Assembly (NCBI GenBank): GCA_943359485.1
Contig: CALRHR010000002.1
Span: 24,992 to 88,991 of the forward strand
DNA from: Candidatus Nomurabacteria bacterium
Lineage (GTDB): Bacteria; Patescibacteriota; Minisyncoccia; Phycocordibacterales; UBA9973
Direction of reading: 5' to 3'
Length of the DNA stretch: 64,000 nt
A model generated the notes under the pieces. It saw only the letters and a program-made list of their open reading frames with translations. It searched no databases and was not told the origin of the DNA. Shown here one piece after another: positions 6,279 to 27,243 of the stretch (the stretch's first letter is position 1; each line of letters opens with the position of its first letter). The position numbers and the translations under genes are program-made.

Positions 6279-7709
6279 ATGGCAAATAAATATTATCCTA
6301 CAATTGGACTTGAAATTCATGCAGAGCTCAAAACAAATACCAAGATGTTTTGTAGTTGCAAGAATGATCCAGATGAGAAGATGCCAAATGTGAATATTTG
6401 TCCAGTTTGTATGGCTCACCCAGGGGCGTTACCGGTGGCAAATAAAAAGGCCATAGAAAATGTTATTAAAGTTGGTCTGGCGCTTGGTGGCAATATTGCT
6501 GATTTTTCAGAATTTGATCGTAAGAATTATTTTTATCCAGACATACCAAAGGGTTATCAGATTTCACAATATAAATTCCCGATAGTTTCTGGTGGGAGTT
6601 TGGCGGGTATGAGAATCACTCGTGTGCATTTAGAAGAAGATACAGCAAACAATAAACACGACAGAGGGGACTTCTCACTTATTGATTTCAATCGTGCGGG
6701 TGTTCCACTCATGGAGCTTGTCACCGAACCACATACATTTGAAAATGCGGAAGAGACAGCAAAAGTAGCAACAAACTTTGCGAAAGAATTGCAGTTGATT
6801 CTGCAGTATTTAGGAGTTTCAGAAGCAAATTTAGAAAAAGGTGAAATGCGTGTGGAGCCAAATATTTCAGTATCTACAGATCCAAAAATTTTAAACACCA
6901 AGGTAGAAATAAAAAATTTAAATTCTTTCAAGAGCGTCGAACGGGCGGTGAAGTATGAGATTGAGAGGATGATAAAACTTTTCGAAGAAGGAAAAGAAAA
7001 AGAAATAGTGCAAGAAACACGAGGCTGGGATGAGTCCAAGCAAAAAACTTTTTCGCAAAGGAAAAAAGAGGGGAGCGCTGATTACAGATATTTCCCAGAC
7101 CCTGACTTACCAAAAATAAAGTTGCACGAAGCTTTCGATTTAGAGCAGTTAAAGAAAGACTTGCTGGAATTACCCGAAGCAAAACGCGAGAGATATAAAA
7201 AAGATTTTGGAATCAAAGAAGAAGATATTGAAGTTTACATAAACGATCCCGTGCTCGCGACTTGGTTTGAAGAAGTGGCGAATATTTTAAAAGATAAAGA
7301 GAAAATTAAAATAGCCTCAAATTACATAACGACAGATTACATTGGACTTAAGAAAAGTTCTGCCAAAGTCGGACTTCCGCAAAGTTCGAATTTCGCAGAA
7401 TTGATAAATATGCTTACTGAGGGCAAGATATCTTCTCGAGTCGCTAAGGATATTTTAGGTGAAATTGTTTTAAATGATGGATCGCCACTTGAAATAATTA
7501 CAACGAAAGGTTTATTGCAAGAAAATGATGAAGAAGCTACAAAGGTGGTTATAGAAAAAATAATTTTAGAGAATCCAGAAATTGTAGCCATTTATAAGTC
7601 TGGGAAGGAAAGTGCTATAATGTCTTTGGTTGGTAAAGTTATTAAAGAAAGTAAAGGCAAGGCGAATCCTAAAATAGTTGTAAAAATTTTAAGAGAGGAA
7701 TTAAAATAA
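6279..7709 (+). CDS. gatB: Asp-tRNA(Asn)/Glu-tRNA(Gln) amidotransferase subunit B
   Basis: MANKYYPTIGLEIHAELKTNTKMFCSC...CPVCMAHPGALP and a C-terminal GatB/YqeY domain. No gatA or gatC is adjacent. Confidence 0.92.
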   Translation: MANKYYPTIGLEIHAELKTNTKMFCSCKNDPDEKMPNVNICPVCMAHPGALPVANKKAIENVIKVGLALGGNIADFSEFDRKNYFYPDIPKGYQISQYKFPIVSGGSLAGMRITRVHLEEDTANNKHDRGDFSLIDFNRAGVPLMELVTEPHTFENAEETAKVATNFAKELQLILQYLGVSEANLEKGEMRVEPNISVSTDPKILNTKVEIKNLNSFKSVERAVKYEIERMIKLFEEGKEKEIVQETRGWDESKQKTFSQRKKEGSADYRYFPDPDLPKIKLHEAFDLEQLKKDLLELPEAKRERYKKDFGIKEEDIEVYINDPVLATWFEEVANILKDKEKIKIASNYITTDYIGLKKSSAKVGLPQSSNFAELINMLTEGKISSRVAKDILGEIVLNDGSPLEIITTKGLLQENDEEATKVVIEKIILENPEIVAIYKSGKESAIMSLVGKVIKESKGKANPKIVVKILREELK

Positions 7710-7711
7710 AA

Positions 7712-8608
7712 ATGAAAACACTGCGTGAATATATAAAACAAGCTGAGGAAAAGGGCGTAGCAATCGGGCATTTTAATATTTCTAATCTTGAAGGATTGCG
7801 TGGTATTTATAATGCAGCAAAGAAAATTTCCGCCCTAGGCGGATCCGCCTTTGGCGGAAAATTGCCAGTAATCATAGGACTTTCGGAAGGAGAAGAAAAG
7901 TTTGTTGGTAGAGCCGAAGGTGTCGCCCTCATTAATGCGATAAGAAACAGAGATAACTACCCTATATTTTTAAATGCGGATCATCATAGTAGTTTTGAAT
8001 CAGTGAAAAATGCTATCGATGCGGGTTTTGATATGGTAATTATTGATGGGGCCAAGCTTAGCTTTGAAGACAATGTAAAAATAACTAAAGAATGTGTGGA
8101 CTATGCTCGTAGTGTAAACAAAGACACAGGTAGAGACGTGTTGGTGGAAGCTGAGCTTGGCTACATAGGTTCTGGTTCTGACATCAAAGACACCATCCCC
8201 GAAGGTGCTGGCATATTAACAACACCCAAAGACGCTTTGAAGTTTGTGCAGGATACAGGGATAGATTTATTTGCACCATCTGTGGGCAGTATTCATGGAC
8301 TCATAAAGTCTGGCAAGCCACATATAAACGCAGATCTTGTAACAGAGATAAAAAAAGTTACAGGTATTCCACTTGTTTTACATGGTGGTTCAGGTTTGCG
8401 TGATGAAGATTTCACAAATGCTATTCAGGCAGGTATTTCTGTAGTACATATAAATTCAGAAATAAGACTCGCAGATAGGGACGCAGTCAAAAAAGCAATC
8501 GAAGAAAACCCAAATGAAATCGTTCCTGCAAAAATTCTCCAACCCGCCGTGGATGCTATCGAGAAAATAGTTTATGAACGACTAAAACTTTTTAATGGGG
8601 TGAAGTAG
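7712..8608 (+). CDS. fba: Class II fructose-bisphosphate aldolase
   Basis: GHFNISNLEG, metal-binding DHHSS, SVGSIHG and LVLHGGSG motifs typical of class II FBA/TBP aldolases. Confidence 0.82.
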   Translation: MKTLREYIKQAEEKGVAIGHFNISNLEGLRGIYNAAKKISALGGSAFGGKLPVIIGLSEGEEKFVGRAEGVALINAIRNRDNYPIFLNADHHSSFESVKNAIDAGFDMVIIDGAKLSFEDNVKITKECVDYARSVNKDTGRDVLVEAELGYIGSGSDIKDTIPEGAGILTTPKDALKFVQDTGIDLFAPSVGSIHGLIKSGKPHINADLVTEIKKVTGIPLVLHGGSGLRDEDFTNAIQAGISVVHINSEIRLADRDAVKKAIEENPNEIVPAKILQPAVDAIEKIVYERLKLFNGVK

Positions 8609-13914: not shown

Positions 13915-13957
13915 CATAAATTCTTTCTTGGCACAACTTTTTATAAAGCAATCTATC

Positions 13958-14030
13958 TGGCGCTGATGCGAGAGCGTTCTTCTCGGGCCGTCGCCCTGCG
14001 AAAGGCTTTCTAAAAAGTGCGCCTGCGACG
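13958..14030. repeat. GC-rich island in the rpmE-prfA spacer
   Basis: tggcgctgatgcgagagcgttcttctcgggccgtcgccctgcgaaaggctttctaaaaagtgcgcctgcgacg is much more GC-rich than its surroundings. It may be related to the intragenic elements or may be a structured RNA. Confidence 0.35.
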
Positions 14031-14051
14031 AATTTATGTTATTTTAAATAT

Positions 14052-15644: not shown

Positions 15645-16361
15645 ATGGAAGATCCAAATACTTTAGTAAAGAAGGTTGTTGAACCAGTTGAACCAACTGG
15701 AGAAAAATCTCCAGAAATATTAGCACTAGAAGAAAGAATATCAAAATTAGAAATGGAAAAATCTGTGCTTGAAGAAGCCCACGCAGGGCTAGTTGAACAA
15801 GTTGAAACATTGAGCAAGCTGGCTTACCTTGATTTATTAACAGGGTTAAAAAGCAGGCTCGCTTTTGACAATGAAATAAAAATATATTTTGATCGAATTT
15901 ATAAAGAAAGTCACATACCTGAACAACGCAAAGAGGGGATGGAGAGTAATGAAAGTTTGGTTTTTGTTATTTTTGATATAGATAAGTTTAAGACAGTTAA
16001 TGATACTCTTGGACATCAAGCAGGAGATGTTGTGCTTAGGAAGGTAGCCAAGCAAATTAAGGGCTTTACTAGAGGTACTGACATCGTAGCTAGATGGGGA
16101 GGAGAAGAAATCGTGGTGGCTTTCATTGGTATGACCCCGAAAGAGGCTGAAGTAAAAACTGATTTTATTCGAAAACGAATAGCAAAGTTGGAGTTTGACG
16201 AATATCCAGACCTTAGGGTTACAATAAGCGCTGGGTTGGCTCACTCAGTTGATTTTAAAAATTCTAAAGACCTTTTTAAGGCTGCTGACGACGCACTATA
16301 TCTTTCAAAAGATGGTGGTCGCGATAAAGTGACAGTCCACAAACCAACAGAAATTAAATAA
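15645..16361 (+). CDS. GGDEF-domain protein (putative diguanylate cyclase) with an N-terminal coiled coil
   Basis: LLTGLKSRLAF...FDIDKFKTVNDTLGHQAGD...RWGGEEIVVAF. The signature reads GGEEI (GGDEF/GGEEF with F replaced by I). Confidence 0.75.
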   Translation: MEDPNTLVKKVVEPVEPTGEKSPEILALEERISKLEMEKSVLEEAHAGLVEQVETLSKLAYLDLLTGLKSRLAFDNEIKIYFDRIYKESHIPEQRKEGMESNESLVFVIFDIDKFKTVNDTLGHQAGDVVLRKVAKQIKGFTRGTDIVARWGGEEIVVAFIGMTPKEAEVKTDFIRKRIAKLEFDEYPDLRVTISAGLAHSVDFKNSKDLFKAADDALYLSKDGGRDKVTVHKPTEIK

Positions 16362-16420: not shown

Positions 16421-16489
16421 GTGAGCGTAGTTCAGTTTGCCTCGCCAACCACCGCCTGAGCGGGGCGAGGCGGGGTGAAGTAGAACGCT
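16421..16489 (+). pseudogene. 5' fragment of a tRNA-Ile-like gene (acceptor and D-arm) interrupted by a 44-nt GC-rich hairpin insert
   Basis: gtgagcgtagttcagt and tagaacgct match positions 1-16 and 19-27 of the intact tRNA downstream (15/16 identity). The insert ttgcctcgcc...ggcgaggcggggtgaag contains a perfect 8-bp stem gcctcgcc/ggcgaggc. No anticodon or T arm follows. Confidence 0.4.
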
Positions 16490-16513
16490 ATAGTGATTGT
16501 GTTTATAAGATTT

Positions 16514-16585
16514 GCGAGCGTAGTTCAGTGGTAGAACGCTGTCCTGATAAGACAGAGGTCGAAGGTCCGATTCCTTCCGCTCGCA
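16514..16585 (+). tRNA. tRNA-Ile (anticodon GAU)
   Basis: Cloverleaf folded by hand: acceptor gcgagcg/cgctcgc, D-stem gttc/gaac, anticodon stem ctgtc/gacag with loop ctGATaa, T-arm gaagg-tccgatt-ccttc, discriminator A. No encoded CCA. Confidence 0.8.
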
Positions 16586-16592
16586 CAAGGTT

Positions 16593-19500
16593 CTAGTCTC
16601 CTTTTTTGTTTAGATTTCGATATAAAATAGAATAATCCAAAGAATTCACAGTGCCGTCTTTATTTATGTCGTATAGTGGAATATTTTTATTCCAATTTTG
16701 AAAGATGATAGAAGAATCTATGGTGTCGATAACACTATCATTGTTGAAATCTCCGGCGGTGAGTTGTCCATAATCAATTTCCGAAGTTTGATTCAAATCA
16801 ACACCACGAATTATTTTTGGTAAAAATCCTGGCACAACTATGCGGATATCTACCACAGTTGAGGAATTAGAAATACTAGGAGTAGCTTGTCCAGAAGAAT
16901 CAGGGGAAATATTTATTTCTGAAAGTTTAGTGCTTTTACTATAAACCTCAATCTTGCCCGGAATGTTTTTTAAATTAGTTCCTTCTAAACTTAACTTTAT
17001 AGATTTTATTTTGGTAGTAGCTTGTGGTGCGCTCTGGGATGGGGTAGGTGTCGGAGTTGGTACTGGTACTGGGGTCGGTGTGGGTATTGGAGCTGGTACA
17101 GGTGTGGGTGTAGGTGCAGGAGTTGGAATAGGGGTGGGAGCTGGCACAGGTGCTGGGGCAGGAGCTGGTGCAGGTACAGGGGTGGGTGTCGGAGCTGGCA
17201 CAGGTGCTGGGGTGACTACTGGATTTCCAATATAATATTTAAAATCTACTGGCACATATGATGTGCGCGAAATTCCAGTAATGCTGTATCCGCTGCCATT
17301 AAAATACACACCTTTGTTTACAGTGGCTTCAGATTTAGTATTTAAGATTGTGTTGCCGTTGTTGTGCCACTTGTCACTGTCTGTAGTTTCTTGGCTTACT
17401 ATGTAATAAGTAGTATTAGCCAAAAGTCCGAGAGGAGAAGCGAGGTCAGTATATGCAAATTGGCCAGCAGTTTTTCCTGCAGTAGATAATTTTACGGAAC
17501 CTAAGTCCGCATTGTCAGAAGCACGAACTATTTTTATTGTATGCGCCTGATTATTTCCAGATACAATATATCGGCCAAGTGCAGTGATGGTGATAGCTTG
17601 GTTGCCTGTCGTCATGGAAAATCCTACCCAGCCCGTATAGTCATTGCGCAAGATGTCTAAAGAAGAGATTGAAGTTACAAAAGCACCTGGCGAAGTCACG
17701 AGGGGGGAAGGTGATGGTGAAGGTGATGGCTGTGGGTTAGCTACTGTAGTCGGTACTGGTGCCGAAACTGGGGCCGGCGTAGGTGCCACAGCACCGCCAG
17801 TAACATTTATATTACTGCTTACGGCGTTGCCATTTGTAGAAAAAGTATTACCGGAACCAGTTATACCAGAAAATGTGGAACCGCCTGTACCATAAATACC
17901 AAAGGACGCATTTCCTGAAAAATTGTTTCCAGAAATTATTACATTTTGTACTTGAGTAGGAGTATCCCAAAAAGTGATTCCGTCACGACTGTGACCGCTA
18001 AAAATATTATTACTAATATTTACAGTGCTTAGGTTGGCATTTCCACCAAAGACTATTCCTGCATACTGAGGTAGGGGATTGGTGCTCGACATAGTGTTAC
18101 CACTTATAGTTACATTTTGCCCGCCATTGTTGAAGTAAATACCACCAGAGAGATTTGAACTTTTATTATTTCGGATTATATTATTGGAAATTGTAGAGTT
18201 GCGCAAAATTTCAGAAGAATTTGTATCTTCGTTTACTACATAGATACCACTCTGGGTGTTTTCCTCAGCAGTATTTCCTGTGATGGTCACATTGCGTGCA
18301 CCATAATTCAGTGTGAGCTGTAAGCCATGGCAGTCGTTACGGTTGGTAGTATTTCCTGAGTACAATGCAGTACTTGATGGATTGTAATAACCATCCATCA
18401 AGAGTTTTATTCCCGCGCACCCAGTGTTGTTGCTGACATTATTTAGAACTTTAACAGTGCCAGAAGCTTGAACGACTATACCAGAGTGTCCTGTTTTATA
18501 AACATGGTTGTTTTCCACTGTGATATTTTTTTCTATCGCGGATTGCCACCAGTTGCCGAGCCACATACCTCGCATTACGCGTAAATTTGGCACTGGCACA
18601 TTCGAAGTATCTCTGTCGATGGTGATATTTTGGTAAGTATTGCCGGTGTTACCAGATGCTTGAAATACAGCTGAGGCTTGACTATCAGGACCACACTGCA
18701 TATTCATGTTGCGAATATTTAAATTTTCGAAAGTTGTATTTGTGTTGTTTGTGGCCCCAAATGCTGCGGTGCAAAAATTGTTGTTGCCATCAACATTTAG
18801 ATTTTTTATTACACAGTTTGTGCAGCTGCGGACATCAAATAAAATTCCACCTGTTATGCCGTTGCTGGCCGTGCCGACACCTGTAATTCTAAAACCACCT
18901 CCGTTTATGCCTTGGACAGTGATGCCAGTTTTCCCGTTTAGGCTAACAGTGCTTCCTATATCTGCCACACAATCAAAATTTATAGTTCCATTGTCAGCTA
19001 CTGCTCCAAAGGCTTGAGTAATAGCCGCCGCTGCATCTCCAGCACCACAAGCTCCATAGTCACTAATGCTTACGTTTGTGGCTACACCTTTTACAATTCC
19101 GTTGATCGAGGAGTTCATTTTCAGTTTTGTCTTCGGACCTATAAGACCATCCGCCACCAAGCCGTGGTTCTTTTGCCATGTTTTAATAACGTTGATAGTC
19201 TTGGGTCCAAGTACGCCGTCGATCACTAGGCCGAGGTTTAAAACTTGGTTCAGAAATTTCTGCAATTCTTTCACTGCTTCACCTCTACTTCCGTTCTTTA
19301 AAGTTACAGCGCCAAAGTTGTACGCAGTTTTGGTTTCAGCTTTTGGTAATGCATAAGTAGTTGCATTATTTTTTGTAGTGCTCACAGGTGAGTATGTGGA
19401 AACTTTCTTACTTCCACCGCCTCCACCACCCCCTCCGCCACCACTTGAACTACTACTATTTGCATTTTGAACGATTCCAATAATATTGTATTCAGCAGAA

Positions 19501-20015
19501 CTCACAGAAGATAAAACGTCTGCACCATTTGAGGCTATGTTCGTATCTGACGTGCTTCCAGACATAAAATCAAAATACAAATTTGTTTTTCCAATATTTT
19601 TGGGTAAAAAAGTTATGGTGGCCAAGACGCCGTTTCCATTGTAAACACCACTACCAGGGGCTACTTGTGCAAAACTAATTCTTCCGTTGGTAGAGTCTGC
19701 AGAATTTACCACAGTGTTTGACATCAAGCTGCCTGGAGAGATTTGTATTCCGGGTGCACCTCCATCCGCATCTACTACCTCTAAAAAAGATGGATTGTAA
19801 TTTAAATACAAGATGTCTACGCCCTCAACACTCGCGTCTTGTGTGTCGAGAAAGATGCTAACCGTAAAGTTGGAGTTCTGAGTTACATTTTGGGAAGAAG
19901 GAGAAAGGTACAGCGTGGCTGCCTCAGTGTTCGTAGCAAAACATAAAAGCATAAGGCCAAACAAGAATACGAGTAATTTGTCTTTTGAGTTTGATTCTTT
20001 TTTCATTTTATACAC
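16593..20015 (-). CDS. Giant secreted multidomain surface protein: signal peptide, cohesin-like domain, Gly10 linker, PG-binding domain, parallel beta-helix (pectate-lyase/NosD-like), PT-linkers, C-terminal dockerin-like repeats
   Basis: 1140 aa with an N-terminal signal peptide ([19 protein letters not shown]). A cohesin-like segment ([14 protein letters not shown]...[19 protein letters not shown]) is followed by a poly-Gly linker and then PG_binding_1 ([15 protein letters not shown]...DGVLGPKT...ADGLIGPKT). Beta-helix repeats have NxN/GxxxN ladders ([24 protein letters not shown]). Long (P[AT]P)n linkers precede a C-terminal dockerin pattern [12 protein letters not shown]...[12 protein letters not shown]. 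Confidence 0.7.
17017..17222 (-). repeat. Low-complexity coding repeat encoding the (PxP[AT])n Pro-Thr linker of the giant protein
   Basis: The repeated ggtgc(t/a)gg(g/t)g(c/t)agg units translate on the minus strand to [20 protein letters not shown]... Confidence 0.7.
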
Positions 20016-20071
20016 TCATTCTAACGGTTTCGTGTCTTAAAAGCAAACAAAATATAATGTGGACAAGCTGT

Positions 20072-20099
20072 TTACTTGATTTCTTGAATCTGCTAGAAT
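20072..20099 (+). promoter_or_regulatory. Putative promoter (TTACTT, 16-bp spacer, TAGAAT) for the 20106 ORF; leaderless geometry
   Basis: The -10 TAGAAT ends 7 nt before the ATG at 20106, and no SD is present. Confidence 0.3.
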
Positions 20100-20105
20100 G
20101 GAATC

Positions 20106-20423
20106 ATGAAAAAAGTAGCTAAAAAATCAACTGGAAAATATGTAACAGAAAAAACCTTCAATGCTTTTGAAGATAGATTTGATAGTAGTTCGAGAGCTAT
20201 CGCGCAATCATTTGCTGACAATGCTGAAGTTACTTCAAGAATGCTTGTAGAACTTAAAAATATAAATGCCGCTACAACTCTTATTCTAAAAGAAATTACA
20301 GCTATACATGAAGATGGAAAAAAGTTTAGAGAAAATATTTCCAGTTTAAATAGTGATGGTTTATCTTGCGATAGAAGAATTAATAATCTAACTATTCGAG
20401 TGGAAAAGCTGGAGTCTAAGTAA
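20106..20423 (+). CDS. Small hypothetical coiled-coil protein
   Basis: 105-aa ORF, Lys/Glu-rich and predicted helical, with no known motif. It lies inside the putative island. Confidence 0.4.
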   Translation: MKKVAKKSTGKYVTEKTFNAFEDRFDSSSRAIAQSFADNAEVTSRMLVELKNINAATTLILKEITAIHEDGKKFRENISSLNSDGLSCDRRINNLTIRVEKLESK

Positions 20424-20425
20424 AT

Positions 20426-20454
20426 TTGCATGCCTTTCTTCTTTATATTATTAT
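20426..20454 (+). promoter_or_regulatory. Promoter-like element copy 1 (TTGCAT, 17-bp spacer, TATTAT) upstream of hicB-like gene
   Basis: A ~40-bp block aatttgcat(g/c)(c/t)ctttcttctttatattattat is shared with 22628-22668 upstream of atpI. The -35/-10 hexamers have an exact 17-bp spacing. Confidence 0.45.
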
Positions 20455-20465
20455 GATATAAGCAT

Positions 20466-20720
20466 ATGATATCAAAATTTATTGAACAAAAATTAAGAAT
20501 GGCAAAATACAAACTACTTACAGACGGTACTTTTTTTGCTGAGGTACCTTCGATTAGGGGTGTTTGGGCAAATGCTAAAACACTAGAAAAATACAGAGAA
20601 GAACTCGCAGAAGTTCTGGAAGACTGGTTATTTTTAAATATTAGAGAAAAAAGAAGTATCCCGGGCTTTCCAGCTAAAACAAATTTCAAGGTACTTTTCA
20701 AGCCAAGGGCTTATGCTTAA
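20466..20720 (+). CDS. HicB-like antitoxin (UPF0150/DUF1902 fold)
   Basis: KYKLLTDGTFFAEVPSIRGVWANAKTLEKYREELAEVLEDWL fits the HicB N-domain pattern Y..DG...AEVP...G....G.T.EEA. Confidence 0.5.
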   Translation: MISKFIEQKLRMAKYKLLTDGTFFAEVPSIRGVWANAKTLEKYREELAEVLEDWLFLNIREKRSIPGFPAKTNFKVLFKPRAYA

Positions 20721-20746
20721 AAACATCTCGTTCAAGAATCTTGTAA

Positions 20747-20926
20747 TTAAGTTTAAAGACCTTGGTTTTTTCTGGTCCATATGCTGGCGGTAGACATTTA
20801 TTTATGGAGAAAAGAAATTTAAAAATTTATATCCCTAATCCGCAAAAAGGTGATATTCCCAAATCTCTAGTTGCTGAGATTTTGCGCCAGGCTGGGATTT
20901 CGAAAGATGACTGGAATGATGCATAG
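20747..20926 (+). pseudogene. Degenerate HicA-like toxin remnant
   Basis: The frame from the upstream stop translates ...FSGPYAGGRHLFMEKRNLKIYIPNPQKGDIPKSLVAEILRQAGISKDDWNDA*. The C-terminus matches the HicA ...TVP.H..KDL..GTL..ILKQAGL end. The N-terminus is degenerate, and the only ATG (20804) would give a 40-aa product. Confidence 0.35.
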
Positions 20927-21011
20927 TCAAAGAGTCTAACCTGTCCCGTAGCGATCTCTACCGTGTACTGAGCTTGCTCTAGTACTGCGGTTCGCTGTTT
21001 TGTACCGGGAC

Positions 21012-21028
21012 TCCTTCCGCTCGCACAA
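21012..21028 (+). repeat. 17-bp direct repeat of the tRNA-Ile 3' end (attR-like)
   Basis: tccttccgctcgcacaa is identical to 16572-16588 (T-stem 3' half, acceptor 3' strand and 3 nt beyond). Two further upstream matches (ga) extend it to 20 positions with one mismatch. Confidence 0.6.
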
Positions 21029-21076
21029 ATTTGCACTATATTTATTTATAATGTATAGTTATAATGATTTTATCGT

Positions 21077-22588
21077 ATGATTTTAGAAACTTTAAACAAT
21101 CCAGAAAAATCTCCCAAACATCCTGCAGTGACGAGGCTTCTTGAGGCGGCTGAGCATTATGTTTCGCCAAAATATCTTAATAAAAATAGAAACCCATGGA
21201 GGAAGAAAGATGATAGTGTTCTCGAATTCATACCGGAGCAATATGACACCGCAGATCCTTTTAATCACAAGTATGACGGAAAAGTTTGGGTTCCTAAGGG
21301 AAACCCGGATTCTGTTATGCCTGATGCTCTAGATTTGAACAATTTAAAATTTATTTCTAAGGAAAAAGCTCAAGAGGCACTGGATCGTTTAGAAGAGTTT
21401 ACTCGTGATATTAAATCCAGCGAGCAGTTGTCACTAGTAATTGGGACTGGTGGTACTATTGCTATGTCACTTCAAAATGGAGAGCTGATTCCAAAACTAG
21501 ACACTGATGCAATCCTGGAATTTGCTGGACAGCGCTTGAGAAACCAATTCAGATTAACAGGCTTGGAATTTCCCAGAGCCATGGATAGTTCTCAGATGTG
21601 TTCTGATTTTACAATGGATATATTAATAGCGATTTCAGCCATTTGGGATAAAGCTTCAGATAATCTAAAGAAACACTTCGCTGGATTTTTAGTTACGCAC
21701 GGTACTGATACTTTAGCATGGAGCGCTGCTGATATGGCAATGGCACTAGGTCCTAACCCGCCTTTTAGTGTTGCTTTTGTCGGTGCCCAACAAACAACAG
21801 AAGCTACTTTTTCTGATGTTGCATCAAATGTAGCTTTCTCTCTTAAATCACTTTCTAGACTAAAAGAGAATAATATAAATACCGTTATGATTGGAATTGG
21901 GGGTACTGCCGGAGCTGCATACAGCGGTTTGGGTGCCATAAAGGTTAGTGATGTGGATGCTAAAGCCTTTGACACTCCCGGACACAAAGTTTTAATTAAT
22001 TGGTCAGATTTTGGTAAAAGTGGAACCAGTAATGAATTTTTACAAAAATCACCTGCAAAAAAAAGAGAAGATTCCTTCAGACCCTTAATTTTTAGTGGTC
22101 CCAGACCATTTTTCCGCATATCGCCAGACCAAGGAAGCAATCCTAATGCAGAATACCAACGTGTTTTAAATTCACCCGAACCTGTAATTATTTTAGAGTC
22201 ATTTGGTACTGGTACTGCCCATAGAGATATTGTTGAAGCTGTGATGACCGCAGCTAAAGAATCGGGAAAAGTAGTTTTTCTGTCCAGCCCTTTGGCTACC
22301 GGTAGTTTAGATCATAAATATGCAGATGCATTATATGCGGTAGAAAGGGGAGCTATCCCCGTAGAAATGATGCCGGCTGCGTTAGCGGCAAAGATTCATC
22401 TAGCCGTTACTATGATTGGTGTTAAAGATAAAGAACGTTTTGTTGATTTTGTAAAAAATCGAAATTATGCAGGAGAACAGTTCGCGGAATGGAAACCCAA
22501 AAATCGGGGAACATCTCCCGGTAATCCTTTCTTTAGAATTGGAGCACCAAGAGGTTTCTCTGATGTTGCATGGACGGGAACAATGTAG
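21077..22588 (+). CDS. L-asparaginase-family protein (asparaginase/glutaminase fold)
   Basis: The VIGTGGTIAMS threonine motif is the asparaginase N-terminal catalytic signature. 503 aa with an unusual ~110-aa N-terminal extension. Confidence 0.55.
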   Translation: MILETLNNPEKSPKHPAVTRLLEAAEHYVSPKYLNKNRNPWRKKDDSVLEFIPEQYDTADPFNHKYDGKVWVPKGNPDSVMPDALDLNNLKFISKEKAQEALDRLEEFTRDIKSSEQLSLVIGTGGTIAMSLQNGELIPKLDTDAILEFAGQRLRNQFRLTGLEFPRAMDSSQMCSDFTMDILIAISAIWDKASDNLKKHFAGFLVTHGTDTLAWSAADMAMALGPNPPFSVAFVGAQQTTEATFSDVASNVAFSLKSLSRLKENNINTVMIGIGGTAGAAYSGLGAIKVSDVDAKAFDTPGHKVLINWSDFGKSGTSNEFLQKSPAKKREDSFRPLIFSGPRPFFRISPDQGSNPNAEYQRVLNSPEPVIILESFGTGTAHRDIVEAVMTAAKESGKVVFLSSPLATGSLDHKYADALYAVERGAIPVEMMPAALAAKIHLAVTMIGVKDKERFVDFVKNRNYAGEQFAEWKPKNRGTSPGNPFFRIGAPRGFSDVAWTGTM

Positions 22589-26771: not shown

Positions 26772-27011
26772 GTGGTTATGAAAAAATCAATTCACAATTA
26801 TACAGCCGTATTTGAAAGAAATGAAAACAATGGCTATACTGTTACGGTTCCTTCGCTTCCTGGTCTTGTTACCGAAGGGAGGAACTTAGATGATGCTCGT
26901 AAAATGGCAACCGAAGCTATCGAGTGCTATTTAGCAGGCCTTAAAGTAGACAAGAAGCAACTTCCAGTCGAGGGAGATATTGCCAGCATCAGGCTTTCGG
27001 TATTTGCATAA
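26772..27011 (+). CDS. hicB: HicB-family antitoxin
   Basis: YTAVFERNENNGYTVTVPSLPGLVTEGRNLDDARKMATEAIECYLAG is the canonical HicB/UPF0150 N-domain. Confidence 0.8.
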   Translation: MVMKKSIHNYTAVFERNENNGYTVTVPSLPGLVTEGRNLDDARKMATEAIECYLAGLKVDKKQLPVEGDIASIRLSVFA

Positions 27012-27012
27012 T

Positions 27013-27243
27013 ATGCCTCGACTCAAGCGTCTTACCGCCAAGGATGTATGTAAAATTCTACACAGTTCTGGATTCTTTGTGCATCATACTCATGGTAGCC
27101 ATGTGCACTTACGACATCCTGAAAAATTGCATTTGCGTGTGGTCGTGCCATATCACAACCGAATTCTTGCACCAAAAACATTGAAATCAATCATTGTTCA
27201 AGCAGAATTATCCAGGGAGGAAATTAAGAATTTTTTTAATTAA
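27013..27243 (+). CDS. hicA: HicA-family mRNA interferase toxin
   Basis: MPRLKRLTAKDVCKILHSSGFFVHHTHGSHVHLRHPEKLHLRVVVPYHNRILAPKTLKSIIVQAEL is the YcfA/HicA fold with the conserved His. It starts 2 nt after the hicB stop. Confidence 0.8.
   Translation: MPRLKRLTAKDVCKILHSSGFFVHHTHGSHVHLRHPEKLHLRVVVPYHNRILAPKTLKSIIVQAELSREEIKNFFN

Follow-up and report, generated by a model that had tools for sequence, protein, structure and literature searches.

The window, by which we mean the whole 64,000-nucleotide stretch analysed here, comes from an uncultured bacterium of the Patescibacteria (CPR) and contains an intact tRNA-Ile(GAU) gene, recognised in an earlier note on this DNA and found in agreement by ARAGORN and Rfam, whose 5′ and 3′ acceptor strands pair without a mismatch. 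It is followed by a 4.4-kb segment with a surface-protein gene, a small helical ORF and a hicB–hicA pair, by a second copy of the tRNA 3′ end, and by an asparaginase-family gene and the atp operon (Table 1). A tRNA-Ile gene preceding the atp operon is a common CPR arrangement, found at 15 loci. Upstream of the tRNA lie a partial 5′ copy of the same tRNA and a GGDEF domain gene.

Table 1. Features of the tRNA-Ile(GAU) locus, with positions in the window.
Feature	Position	Strand	Evidence
GGDEF diguanylate cyclase gene, upstream of the tRNA, outside the island, within the variable region	15645-16361	+	Pfam GGDEF, E = 2e-34
tRNA-Ile 5′ pseudo-fragment	16421-16510	+	Repeat families; alignment to tRNA
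Intact tRNA-Ile(GAU), attL side	16514-16585	+	ARAGORN (16514-16586); Rfam, 72.8 bits (16514-16585)
17-bp direct repeat, left copy (final 14 nt of tRNA-Ile + CAA)	16572-16588	+	Repeat search
Secreted surface protein gene, 1140 aa	16593-20015	-	Pfam PG_binding_1, Beta_helix, NosD, Dockerin_1
ORF105, 105 aa, predicted single long helix	20106-20423	+	Homolog search; AlphaFold2
hicB antitoxin gene, apparently intact	20466-20720	+	Pfam UPF0150-like, E = 7e-23, profile positions 1-64/64
hicA toxin pseudogene, one frameshift at T6 run 20766-20771	20713-20926	+	Three-frame translation; C-terminal part Pfam HicA_toxin
Non-coding GC-richer long hairpin, abutting the displaced tRNA 3′ end	20943-21011	+	Folding of 20927-21030
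17-bp direct repeat, right copy (displaced tRNA 3′ end), attR side	21012-21028	+	Repeat search; spacer alignment with L003
Asparaginase-family gene, conserved right flank, preceding the atp operon	21077-22588	+	Pfam Asparaginase; contexts of relatives

The surface-protein gene is the sole minus-strand gene within 40 kb, the neighbourhood being otherwise uniformly plus as judged by ORF orientation, and its stop codon lies 4 nt from the left repeat, so that no att arm is left on the tRNA side. The core of the protein is 71% identical to P0016, which is encoded in a cluster of surface-protein genes away from any tRNA gene. ORF105 belongs to a small conserved family with 34 representative homologs, and its AlphaFold2 model consists of one 90-residue helix (residues 15–104, pLDDT 90). 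A homolog lies 52 nt after tRNA-Ile at locus L185, with a conserved promoter and in the order RRM gene, tRNA, ORF105, atp operon; another is found beside tRNA-Ile at L105 and L107. Because an ORF105 homolog adjoins tRNA-Ile at L185, not all of the cargo need be foreign, and this part of it may be a long-standing neighbour of the tRNA.

The hicB–hicA pair resembles type II HicAB toxin–antitoxin modules in gene order, in the overlap of the hicA start with the end of hicB and in the detection of both domains, but differs from them in the frameshift of hicA; after repair of the frameshift, hicA matches PHROG 353, annotated as a toxin. The pair had been described as degenerate, which is true of hicA but not of hicB, where the full profile is covered. 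Since only one of the two adjacent genes is whole and hicA is frameshifted, the module is probably inactive. The frameshift would fit decay of an island, and the module with its broken toxin and the lone minus-strand surface gene were both counted in favour of reading the segment as such. Beyond hicA, the region that folds into the long hairpin reaches -34.2 kcal/mol (z = -3.6), a value equalled by none of 200 shuffles. In tetranucleotide composition the segment stands out more strongly than any other part of the window, its distance being reached by none of 128 comparison windows, possibly owing to the repetitive Pro/Thr/Gly-rich surface protein; the cargo genes have an ordinary GC3.

Could the second copy of the tRNA end be a coincidence within ordinary chromosome? 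The 17-bp repeat, TCCTTCCGCTCGCACAA, occurs in two exact copies, and a check for copies at many unrelated places returned, within the window, only these two even with up to 2 mismatches permitted. With one mismatch permitted, the identity of the right copy reaches back to 21009 (GAcTCC...); the 3′ fragment begins in the T-loop, a breakpoint class that recurs in our survey of CPR loci. The CAA behind the discriminator base is common after tRNA-Ile elsewhere (L134, L151), which makes 3 of the 17 bases weakly informative. Yet the chance expectation for the repeat is 0.01, two matches were obtained in 0 of 100 shuffles, the breakpoint coincides with the recurrent class, and the copy occupies, relative to the asparaginase gene, the exact position of the tRNA 3′ end in a relative, L003. 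A chance match, to which we assign a negligible probability, is effectively refuted by the shuffles and the L003 alignment, and the exact copy reported previously stands.

L003 also provides a view of the site without the segment. There an RRM gene, a terminator, tRNA-Ile, 35 nt and the asparaginase gene follow one another, with nothing between tRNA and asparaginase gene, and the L003 spacer from tRNA 3′ end to ATG aligns with the stretch of the window that runs from the right repeat copy to the start codon of the asparaginase gene. Because of this short distance and the homology of the two spacers, we take L003 to represent the unoccupied site. No presence/absence polymorphism of the segment was seen, every contig with this locus being identical. 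The earlier note had predicted an empty site in which the GGDEF gene abuts the asparaginase gene; the site exists, but what meets the asparaginase gene there is the tRNA, preceded by the RRM gene. None of the four relatives with a known upstream side (L003, L213, L132 and L185) has a GGDEF gene between RRM gene and tRNA-Ile; the gene is lineage-specific and not the stable left flank. Positions 16589–21011 very probably represent an insertion into the 3′ region of the tRNA-Ile gene, hereafter the island.

Searches that included Pfam domain contexts detected no recombinase of the tyrosine or serine type in the island, the 64-kb window or the ~5 kb of contig beyond, in line with the earlier observation for the segment, and neither island nor window contains a remnant; inspection of roughly 70 kb of the 102-kb contig gave no cognate integrase, nor did searches return an attP or a second copy of the island. 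Relatives at L213, L214 and L132, which share the window's neighbourhood, carry a Xer-like tyrosine integrase ~125 nt after the same tRNA-Ile. In L213 the neighbourhood L25-SLT-L31-prfB-RRM is as in the window, with PrfB 88% identical, and besides the integrase there is ~6.7 kb of copper-resistance cargo, encoded on the opposite strand, before the atp operon; L214 independently confirms this junction. In L132 the same integrase arm follows tRNA-Ile, and the acceptor stem of this tRNA is a mismatched hybrid, as expected where an element supplies the tRNA 3′ end. The integrase family is widespread in the CPR (2338 matches) and also occurs directly after tRNA-Thr in L215, L217 and L218.

We favour the following course of events. 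A small genomic island would have entered the tRNA-Ile(GAU) gene in its 3′ part, within the T-loop/acceptor region, and supplied a tRNA 3′ end of its own, such that the tRNA stayed intact (attL) and the original 3′ end (attR) came to lie 4.4 kb downstream, still ahead of the asparaginase promoter. We consider a Xer-like tyrosine integrase the most likely agent, since this type adjoins the same tRNA in related genomes, and an integrase origin strikes us as reasonably probable. The integrase gene and the att arm beside the tRNA would have been lost later, and the island would now be fixed, or mobilisable only in trans. It is thus best read as an ordinary kind of genomic island that lacks its integrase and is either decayed or trans-dependent in the manner of a CIME. 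The attL/attR geometry of an integrase-less tRNA-targeting element, as proposed in the earlier note, is borne out by the empty site at L003 and by the integrases at L213, L214 and L132; we infer that an integrase made the window's own insertion and was subsequently deleted. Counted against an integrase origin were the missing integrase or remnant, the missing att arm at the surface-gene side, the failure to find an attP or second copy, the identity of all contigs with the locus, the ordinary GC3 of the cargo, the ORF105 homolog at L185, and locus L189, where an insert with the same T-loop breakpoint has a GIY-YIG nuclease gene and no integrase.

L189 is the starting point for a different explanation, in which a small GIY-YIG nuclease element cut the tRNA gene within its T-loop and, on being copied in, brought along a substitute tRNA 3′ end, the nuclease gene being lost and cargo accumulating afterwards. 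At that locus an intact tRNA-Ile, a 140-nt spacer, an 80-aa GIY-YIG ORF and 30 nt precede a 3′ fragment whose start (GATTCC...) falls on the T-loop position where the window's fragment (GAcTCC...) also begins, and L103, whose insert measures 126 nt, shares the breakpoint. In the window a stable GC hairpin borders directly on the 3′ fragment, as GC hairpins do in the small elements, and the window's own 5′ scar is of the small-element type. The window, however, contains neither a GIY-YIG ORF nor a remnant, all GIY-YIG or hairpin inserts seen are shorter than 0.5 kb as against 4.4 kb, the closest relatives with an occupied site have integrases and not GIY-YIG genes, and both the activity and the target specificity of the GIY-YIG nucleases are putative. 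We regard a homing-type origin of the island as unlikely.

Somewhat less likely still is that the segment never was one mobile unit. ORF105, perhaps with hicBA, would then be an old neighbour, the 17-bp copy and hairpin would have been left behind by a separate, small insertion in the T-loop or by a local duplication, and the surface gene would have arrived by ordinary recombination. The ORF105 homologs beside tRNA-Ile at L185, with its conserved promoter, and at L105 and L107 speak for this, as do the surface-protein homolog in an ordinary surface-protein cluster elsewhere, the ordinary GC3 of the cargo and the several independent events evident at the locus (GGDEF gene, 5′ scar, hairpin). 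But ORF105 and hicBA lie on the tRNA side of the displaced 3′ end, which adjoins the ancestral promoter, so that everything between this end and the tRNA must have entered at or after the split; moreover, ORF105 is missing at the tRNA-Ile site of L003 and L213, and more events are required than for a single insertion.

How does the island compare with known systems? Islands integrated into tRNA genes by tyrosine integrases, including P4-like islands, ICEs and IMEs, fall into sublocation classes according to where within the tRNA gene they integrate. The window shares with them the regenerated tRNA, the displaced 3′ copy at the far end, the empty site in a relative, the toxin–antitoxin cargo and, in relatives, the integrase right after the same tRNA. 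Unlike them, it has no integrase gene and no non-coding att arm on the tRNA side, the island measures only 4.4 kb, and neither evidence of excision nor a second copy was found. CIMEs, described for streptococcal ICEs, are cis-mobilisable, att-flanked islands without recombination genes; the island likewise lies between att-like direct repeats, at the 3′ end of a tRNA gene, and has no recombinase of its own, but differs in that the roughly 70 kb of contig inspected hold no cognate integrase and its mobilisation in trans is only putative.

Free-standing GIY-YIG homing endonuclease genes are known, for example, from phage T4, whose segB lies in a tRNA gene cluster (PMC2330249). Small GIY-YIG ORFs likewise occur in or beside tRNA genes at the CPR loci L135, L179, L189, L193 and L154, but these elements restore the target gene by duplicating its tRNA partly or wholly, and they carry GC hairpins; their nucleases are putative, and the window holds only an ORF-less scar (16421–16510). 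Group I introns in Patescibacteria have identified CPR tRNA genes, notably the anticodon loop, as frequent insertion targets (PMC13011429), and that paper mentions neither tRNA fragments nor GIY-YIG genes. An intron-like insert is present in the tRNA-Thr gene of L215. The inserts considered here, in contrast, are something other than introns: the gene copy that they interrupt is dead, and the working tRNA is a complete duplicate.

The scar itself begins with tRNA bases 1–16, with one substitution (16421–16436), followed by a 43-nt GC-rich insert (16437–16479; stem 16439–16446/16464–16471), by tRNA bases 18–27 (16480–16489) and by a degenerate stretch to about base 39 that ends at 16510, 3 nt ahead of the intact tRNA. 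Its hairpin is unique in the window, but L094 has the same hairpin type at the same tRNA position, with a 22-nt exact match to the window's stem (16439–16471), and L213, L133 and L135 have other GC hairpins there. The earlier note had taken this partial copy as a sign of an integration hotspot; the alignment upholds the fragment, but it appears to be the separate, older scar of a small hairpin/GIY-YIG-type insertion and not of an integrase element. That tRNA-Ile is a recurrent hotspot is borne out by our survey, in which fragments of the own tRNA flank 26 of 113 CPR tRNA-Ile loci (0 in a reversed-sequence control). Breakpoints fall in the D-loop, anticodon loop or T-loop, the window's 5′ fragment breaking after base 16 and its 3′ fragment starting from the T-loop, and some loci are nested, tRNA in tRNA. 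Small GIY-YIG ORFs accompany the fragments at 5 of the 26 loci; only 5 of 120 surveyed loci have such an ORF inside the insert, and the remaining inserts have no ORF. We found no description in the literature of recurrent own-tRNA fragments at CPR tRNA-Ile loci.

From L135, L179, L189 and L154 we defined a target-restoring insertion type, with which the window shares a fragment beside an intact copy and GC hairpins at the junctions (16439–16471 and 20943–21011), but not a GIY-YIG ORF. Such elements would be GC-hairpin modules, with or without an 80–90-aa GIY-YIG nuclease, that bring along the missing part of the tRNA or a whole replacement, yielding a 'tRNA inside a split tRNA'. Their targets would be CPR tRNA genes, as seen for tRNA-Ile(GAU) and once for tRNA-Ala. 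It is doubtful that the island, too, is a cargo-loaded T-loop derivative of this undescribed class, with the 5′ scar as a further member, instead of an integrase island. A class of target-restoring selfish elements in CPR tRNA genes nevertheless probably exists and probably includes the window's 5′ scar, and the tRNA-Ile gene is hit unusually often by small mobile DNA across the CPR.

Our analyses of the tRNA-Ile locus revealed a 17-mer, TCCTTCCGCTCGCACAA, composed of the 3′-most 14 nt of the tRNA-Ile(GAU) gene followed by CAA, that occurs at only two sites in the window with up to two mismatches permitted: at the end of the intact gene and beyond a surface protein gene, a 105-aa ORF (ORF105) and a hicB/hicA pair. 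Its expected count is 0.01, and two matches arose in none of 100 shuffles; with one mismatch permitted, the similarity of the displaced 3′ copy begins at 21009, within the T-loop. The arrangement that the earlier note had described, a tRNA followed by cargo and a 17-bp repeat of the tRNA 3′ end, is thereby confirmed by ARAGORN, Rfam and the repeat search with shuffles. A degenerate remainder of the tRNA upstream of the 3′ fragment appeared in permissive local alignment only, and was not accepted because blastn-short recovers just bases 59–75. The window, whose genes are almost all housekeeping genes on the plus strand, is identical in sequence to the 102-kb ENA contig ERZ27280328:k141_2273450, and a Logan contig starting within the tRNA is likewise identical.

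Coordinates of features in the window and in loci of other CPR genomes or metagenomes (handles beginning with L)
Feature	Locus	Position	Strand	Remarks
tRNA-Ile(GAU)	window	16514–16586		ARAGORN; Rfam score 72.8 bits
Copies of the 17-mer	window	16572–16588 and 21012–21028		
5′ pseudo-copy of tRNA-Ile	window	16421–16510		
Surface protein gene	window	16593–20015	minus	1140 aa; signal peptide, PG_binding_1, beta-helix, dockerin
ORF105	window	20106–20423	plus	105 aa; between the two repeat copies
hicB	window			between repeat copies
hicA	window			start 8 nt inside hicB end
GGDEF gene	window	15645–16361		
GC-rich non-coding stretch	window	13950–14040		
Second hicB/hicA pair	window	26778–27243		
ORF105 homolog	L185	6246–6518		
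ORF105 homolog	L107	3109–3420	minus	
Surface protein homolog	L089	3988–6474		aligned with window 16593–20015
tRNA-Ile	L132	99–171		
Inverted tRNA repeat	L213	4873–4939 and 11684–11750		
tRNA-Thr(GGU)	L215	about 7530–7990		
tRNA-Thr(GGU)	L217	7889–7963		
GIY-YIG ORF	L135	1313–1594		tRNA set on plus strand
GIY-YIG ORF	L179	2182–2547		tRNA set on plus strand
GIY-YIG ORF	L189	601–1020		tRNA set on plus strand
GIY-YIG ORF	L193	13729–14052		tRNA set on plus strand
GIY-YIG ORF	L154	464–763		tRNA set on plus strand; same design in tRNA-Ala

An empty tRNA-Ile site, which the earlier note had proposed to seek in relatives, is present in L003, where the terminator of the RRM gene is followed by tRNA-Ile and, 35 nt on, by the asparaginase ATG, with nothing between. 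The L003 spacer from tRNA 3′ end to ATG aligns with the window spacer from 3′ fragment to ATG, TATAAT box included; the displaced copy therefore stands where the tRNA ended ancestrally, and all DNA between it and the intact tRNA arrived at or after the split. The L003 site may never have been occupied or may have been precisely excised, and either history is compatible with an island. The upstream order L25–SLT–L31–prfB–RRM is common to three relatives, with PrfB 87–88% and L25 74–76% identical to those of the window. As a single-protein query against GTDB species representatives the asparaginase returned nothing close, and its alignment, run against the genome collection, returned distant matches only, at ≤36% identity, from Patescibacteria and Peregrinibacteria. 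These matches, with the NCBI label of the relative L213, assign the window to a CPR bacterium. Immediately downstream of tRNA-Ile, 15 of 120 CPR loci carry the atp operon, and this order appears to be the ancestral arrangement.

The other side of the tRNA is less stable than had been supposed. The GGDEF gene, previously taken as a fixed flank, is missing between RRM gene and tRNA in L003, L213, L132 and L185 and is therefore lineage-specific, a second such insertion at the tRNA-Ile locus; a search for a repeat flanking it in the window found none. This gene, encoding a diguanylate cyclase, sits between the RRM-gene terminator and the tRNA. Elsewhere in the window, the interval from the L31 gene to prfB includes a GC-rich non-coding stretch of ~90 nt that matches nothing in Rfam at the gathering threshold; upstream of prfB, the CTTTGA frameshift motif is absent. 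A second, apparently intact hicB/hicA pair interrupts the ATP synthase operon, with atpA on one side and atpG on the other.

Within the island, the stop codon of the surface protein gene lies 4 nt from the repeat. The hicB/hicA pair had been called degenerate, which holds for hicA, with a single frameshift at a run of six T, but not for hicB, which is intact. The 85 non-coding nt after hicA form a long hairpin (−34.2 kcal/mol, z = −3.6) directly adjoining the 3′ copy; a 15-nt match between it and L126/L140 (E = 0.05) is probably chance. Composition, a kind of check also suggested in the earlier note, is ambiguous: by tetranucleotides the island is the strongest outlier (0 of 128 windows), yet its GC3 is unremarkable, and the gene for the surface protein is highly repetitive. 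ORF105, modelled as a single 90-residue helix, belongs to a small family of ~34 representative clusters. Homologs that differ in orientation adjoin tRNA-Ile at three further CPR loci: in L185, 52 nt past the tRNA in the order RRM, tRNA, ORF105, atp operon and with a recognisably conserved promoter (0 of 300 shuffles), and in L105 and L107; a further homolog occurs in L219. It follows that ORF105 either marks the elements that use this site, as their signature gene, or has long stood beside the tRNA. In L185, a CTCCTTCC... stretch downstream of ORF105 falls short of significance, with 20 of 300 shuffles scoring equally.

The beta-helix core and following domain of the surface protein are 71% identical to those of a protein in another CPR MAG (L089). 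The two proteins do not agree in their N-terminal modules (cohesin-like, PG-binding) or at the C terminus (dockerin), a pattern suggesting that CPR surface proteins shuffle domains. The neighbourhood of this closest homolog contains no tRNA and no repeat.

How did the segment reach the tRNA? Neither the island nor the 64-kb window contains a recombinase, a GIY-YIG gene or a remnant of either, and tblastn at E up to 20 found no integrase or GIY-YIG remnants, bearing out the absence of an integrase remarked on before. In IMG/VR, TCCTTCCGCTCGCACAA as a candidate attP gave three matches, judged chance because their surroundings are GC-rich, unrelated and free of tRNAs, and ORF105 and HicB gave no match. 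Integrases do occur after the same tRNA in relatives. L213, labelled Candidatus Pacebacteria by NCBI, has a Xer-like tyrosine integrase ~125 nt past tRNA-Ile, then, on the opposite strand, copper-resistance genes spanning ~6.7 kb, with the atp operon farther on; an independent assembly (L214) has the same tRNA–integrase junction. In L132, a homologous integrase arm and a methylase-like ORF follow tRNA-Ile. This integrase family has 2338 CPR matches, the best 120 listed being 63–92% identical, and it also lies immediately after tRNA-Thr, beside island-like cargo, in L215, L217 and L218; among the 120 CPR tRNA-Ile loci scanned, L132 alone carries an integrase. On the strength of the integrases in relatives, the window segment is read as the same kind of island minus its integrase. 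A different comparison comes from the T-loop breakpoint of the 3′ copy, which L189 and L103 share; the L189 segment separating fragment from intact tRNA encodes an 80-aa GIY-YIG ORF and no integrase.

Weighing these observations, we consider it highly probable that the island was inserted into the 3′ region of the tRNA, and we lean towards an integrase origin. The integrase and adjacent att arm would then have been lost, leaving an island that may now be fixed or may rely on integrase supplied in trans, in the manner of a cis-mobilisable element (CIME). The insertion geometry and integrase-less tRNA island advanced in the earlier note are supported by the empty L003 site and the integrase islands of relatives, and the island belongs to a known kind, the tRNA-integrated island without integrase.

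Several of the comparison loci have peculiarities of their own. In L213, a 67-nt inverted repeat of the tRNA, without a mismatch, bounds the island; its left copy, at the junction that L214 independently supports, lacks the final 5 nt of the tRNA, and only the inverted copy at the opposite boundary is an intact tRNA-Ile, an arrangement that may reflect inversion or an element-borne replacement tRNA. In L132, the tRNA-Ile just ahead of the integrase has an acceptor stem of hybrid make-up (5′ GAGTGTG / 3′ CAGACAC, two mismatches), as expected if the tRNA 3′ end came from an element. That 3′ strand also matches the foreign inner tRNA of L171. The L132 gene would be a recombinant tRNA or else an assembly join. 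The tRNA-Thr(GGU) genes of L215 and L217 precede the integrase, and that of L215 has a ~230-nt intron-like insert in its anticodon loop and is itself preceded by a duplicated 5′ half.

The suspicion that this tRNA is a recurrent integration hotspot is well founded. The conserved 39-nt core of tRNA-Ile, used as query against metagenomes, returned the 120 CPR loci, 113 with a complete gene; same-strand self-fragments within 700 nt accompany 26 of these 113 (19 upstream, 13 downstream) and none in a reversed-sequence control. Breakpoints cluster after bases 12–21 (D-loop), at ~30–36 (anticodon stem/loop) and at 55–56 (T-loop), and D-loop junctions bear GC-rich hairpins. At five loci, four of tRNA-Ile and one of tRNA-Ala, the insert contains a GIY-YIG ORF of 80–90 aa (Pfam PF01541), placed between tRNA fragment and intact tRNA with GC hairpins flanking. 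These inserts look like homing elements that bring a replacement for the gene part they interrupt. L118 and L135 are nested, with an outer 5′ part, an insert, a complete inner tRNA, an insert and an outer 3′ part; joined, the outer parts give a valid tRNA-Ile identical to the inner copy at 71/72 and 72/72 positions, respectively. In L171 the acceptor stem of the inner tRNA is unlike that of the outer, so the inner tRNA came from elsewhere. Fragments or nesting are exemplified by L118, L135, L171, L155, L189 and L103, from the L090–L209 set.

The window has its own example in the 5′ pseudo-copy, which ends 3 nt ahead of the intact gene and comprises bases 1–16, a 43-nt GC hairpin, bases 18–27 and a degenerate stretch to about base 39. 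The hairpin is unique in the window, which disposes of a multi-copy repeat, and shares 22 nt with a hairpin in L094. By its make-up the fragment is assigned, provisionally, to the hairpin/GIY-YIG insertion class as an ORF-less member, and it and the 4.4-kb insertion are separate events. Fragments do not flank the window's other tRNAs (Trp, Leu, Gln). A literature search on GIY-YIG genes and tRNA fragments in CPR found no matching description, and a survey of tRNA introns in Patescibacteria mentions neither (PMC13011429). The nested tRNA genes and putatively target-restoring hairpin/GIY-YIG insertions of CPR form a more novel lead than the island itself.

The island on its own represents a routine case of tRNA-targeted gene acquisition, modestly interesting because, to our knowledge, such islands and Xer-like integrases are little documented in reduced CPR genomes. 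It delivers the gene of a large cell-surface protein, and such proteins are thought important for the episymbiotic lifestyle of CPR bacteria. The tRNA-Ile context is the more valuable lead: an essential and probably single-copy gene is repeatedly broken and restored, by small hairpin/GIY-YIG insertions and integrase islands. If this holds up, it would represent a homing element of a new type, one sparing the host gene by carrying its replacement, would account for tRNA pseudo-fragments in CPR genomes, and would provide a marker for locating their variable regions.
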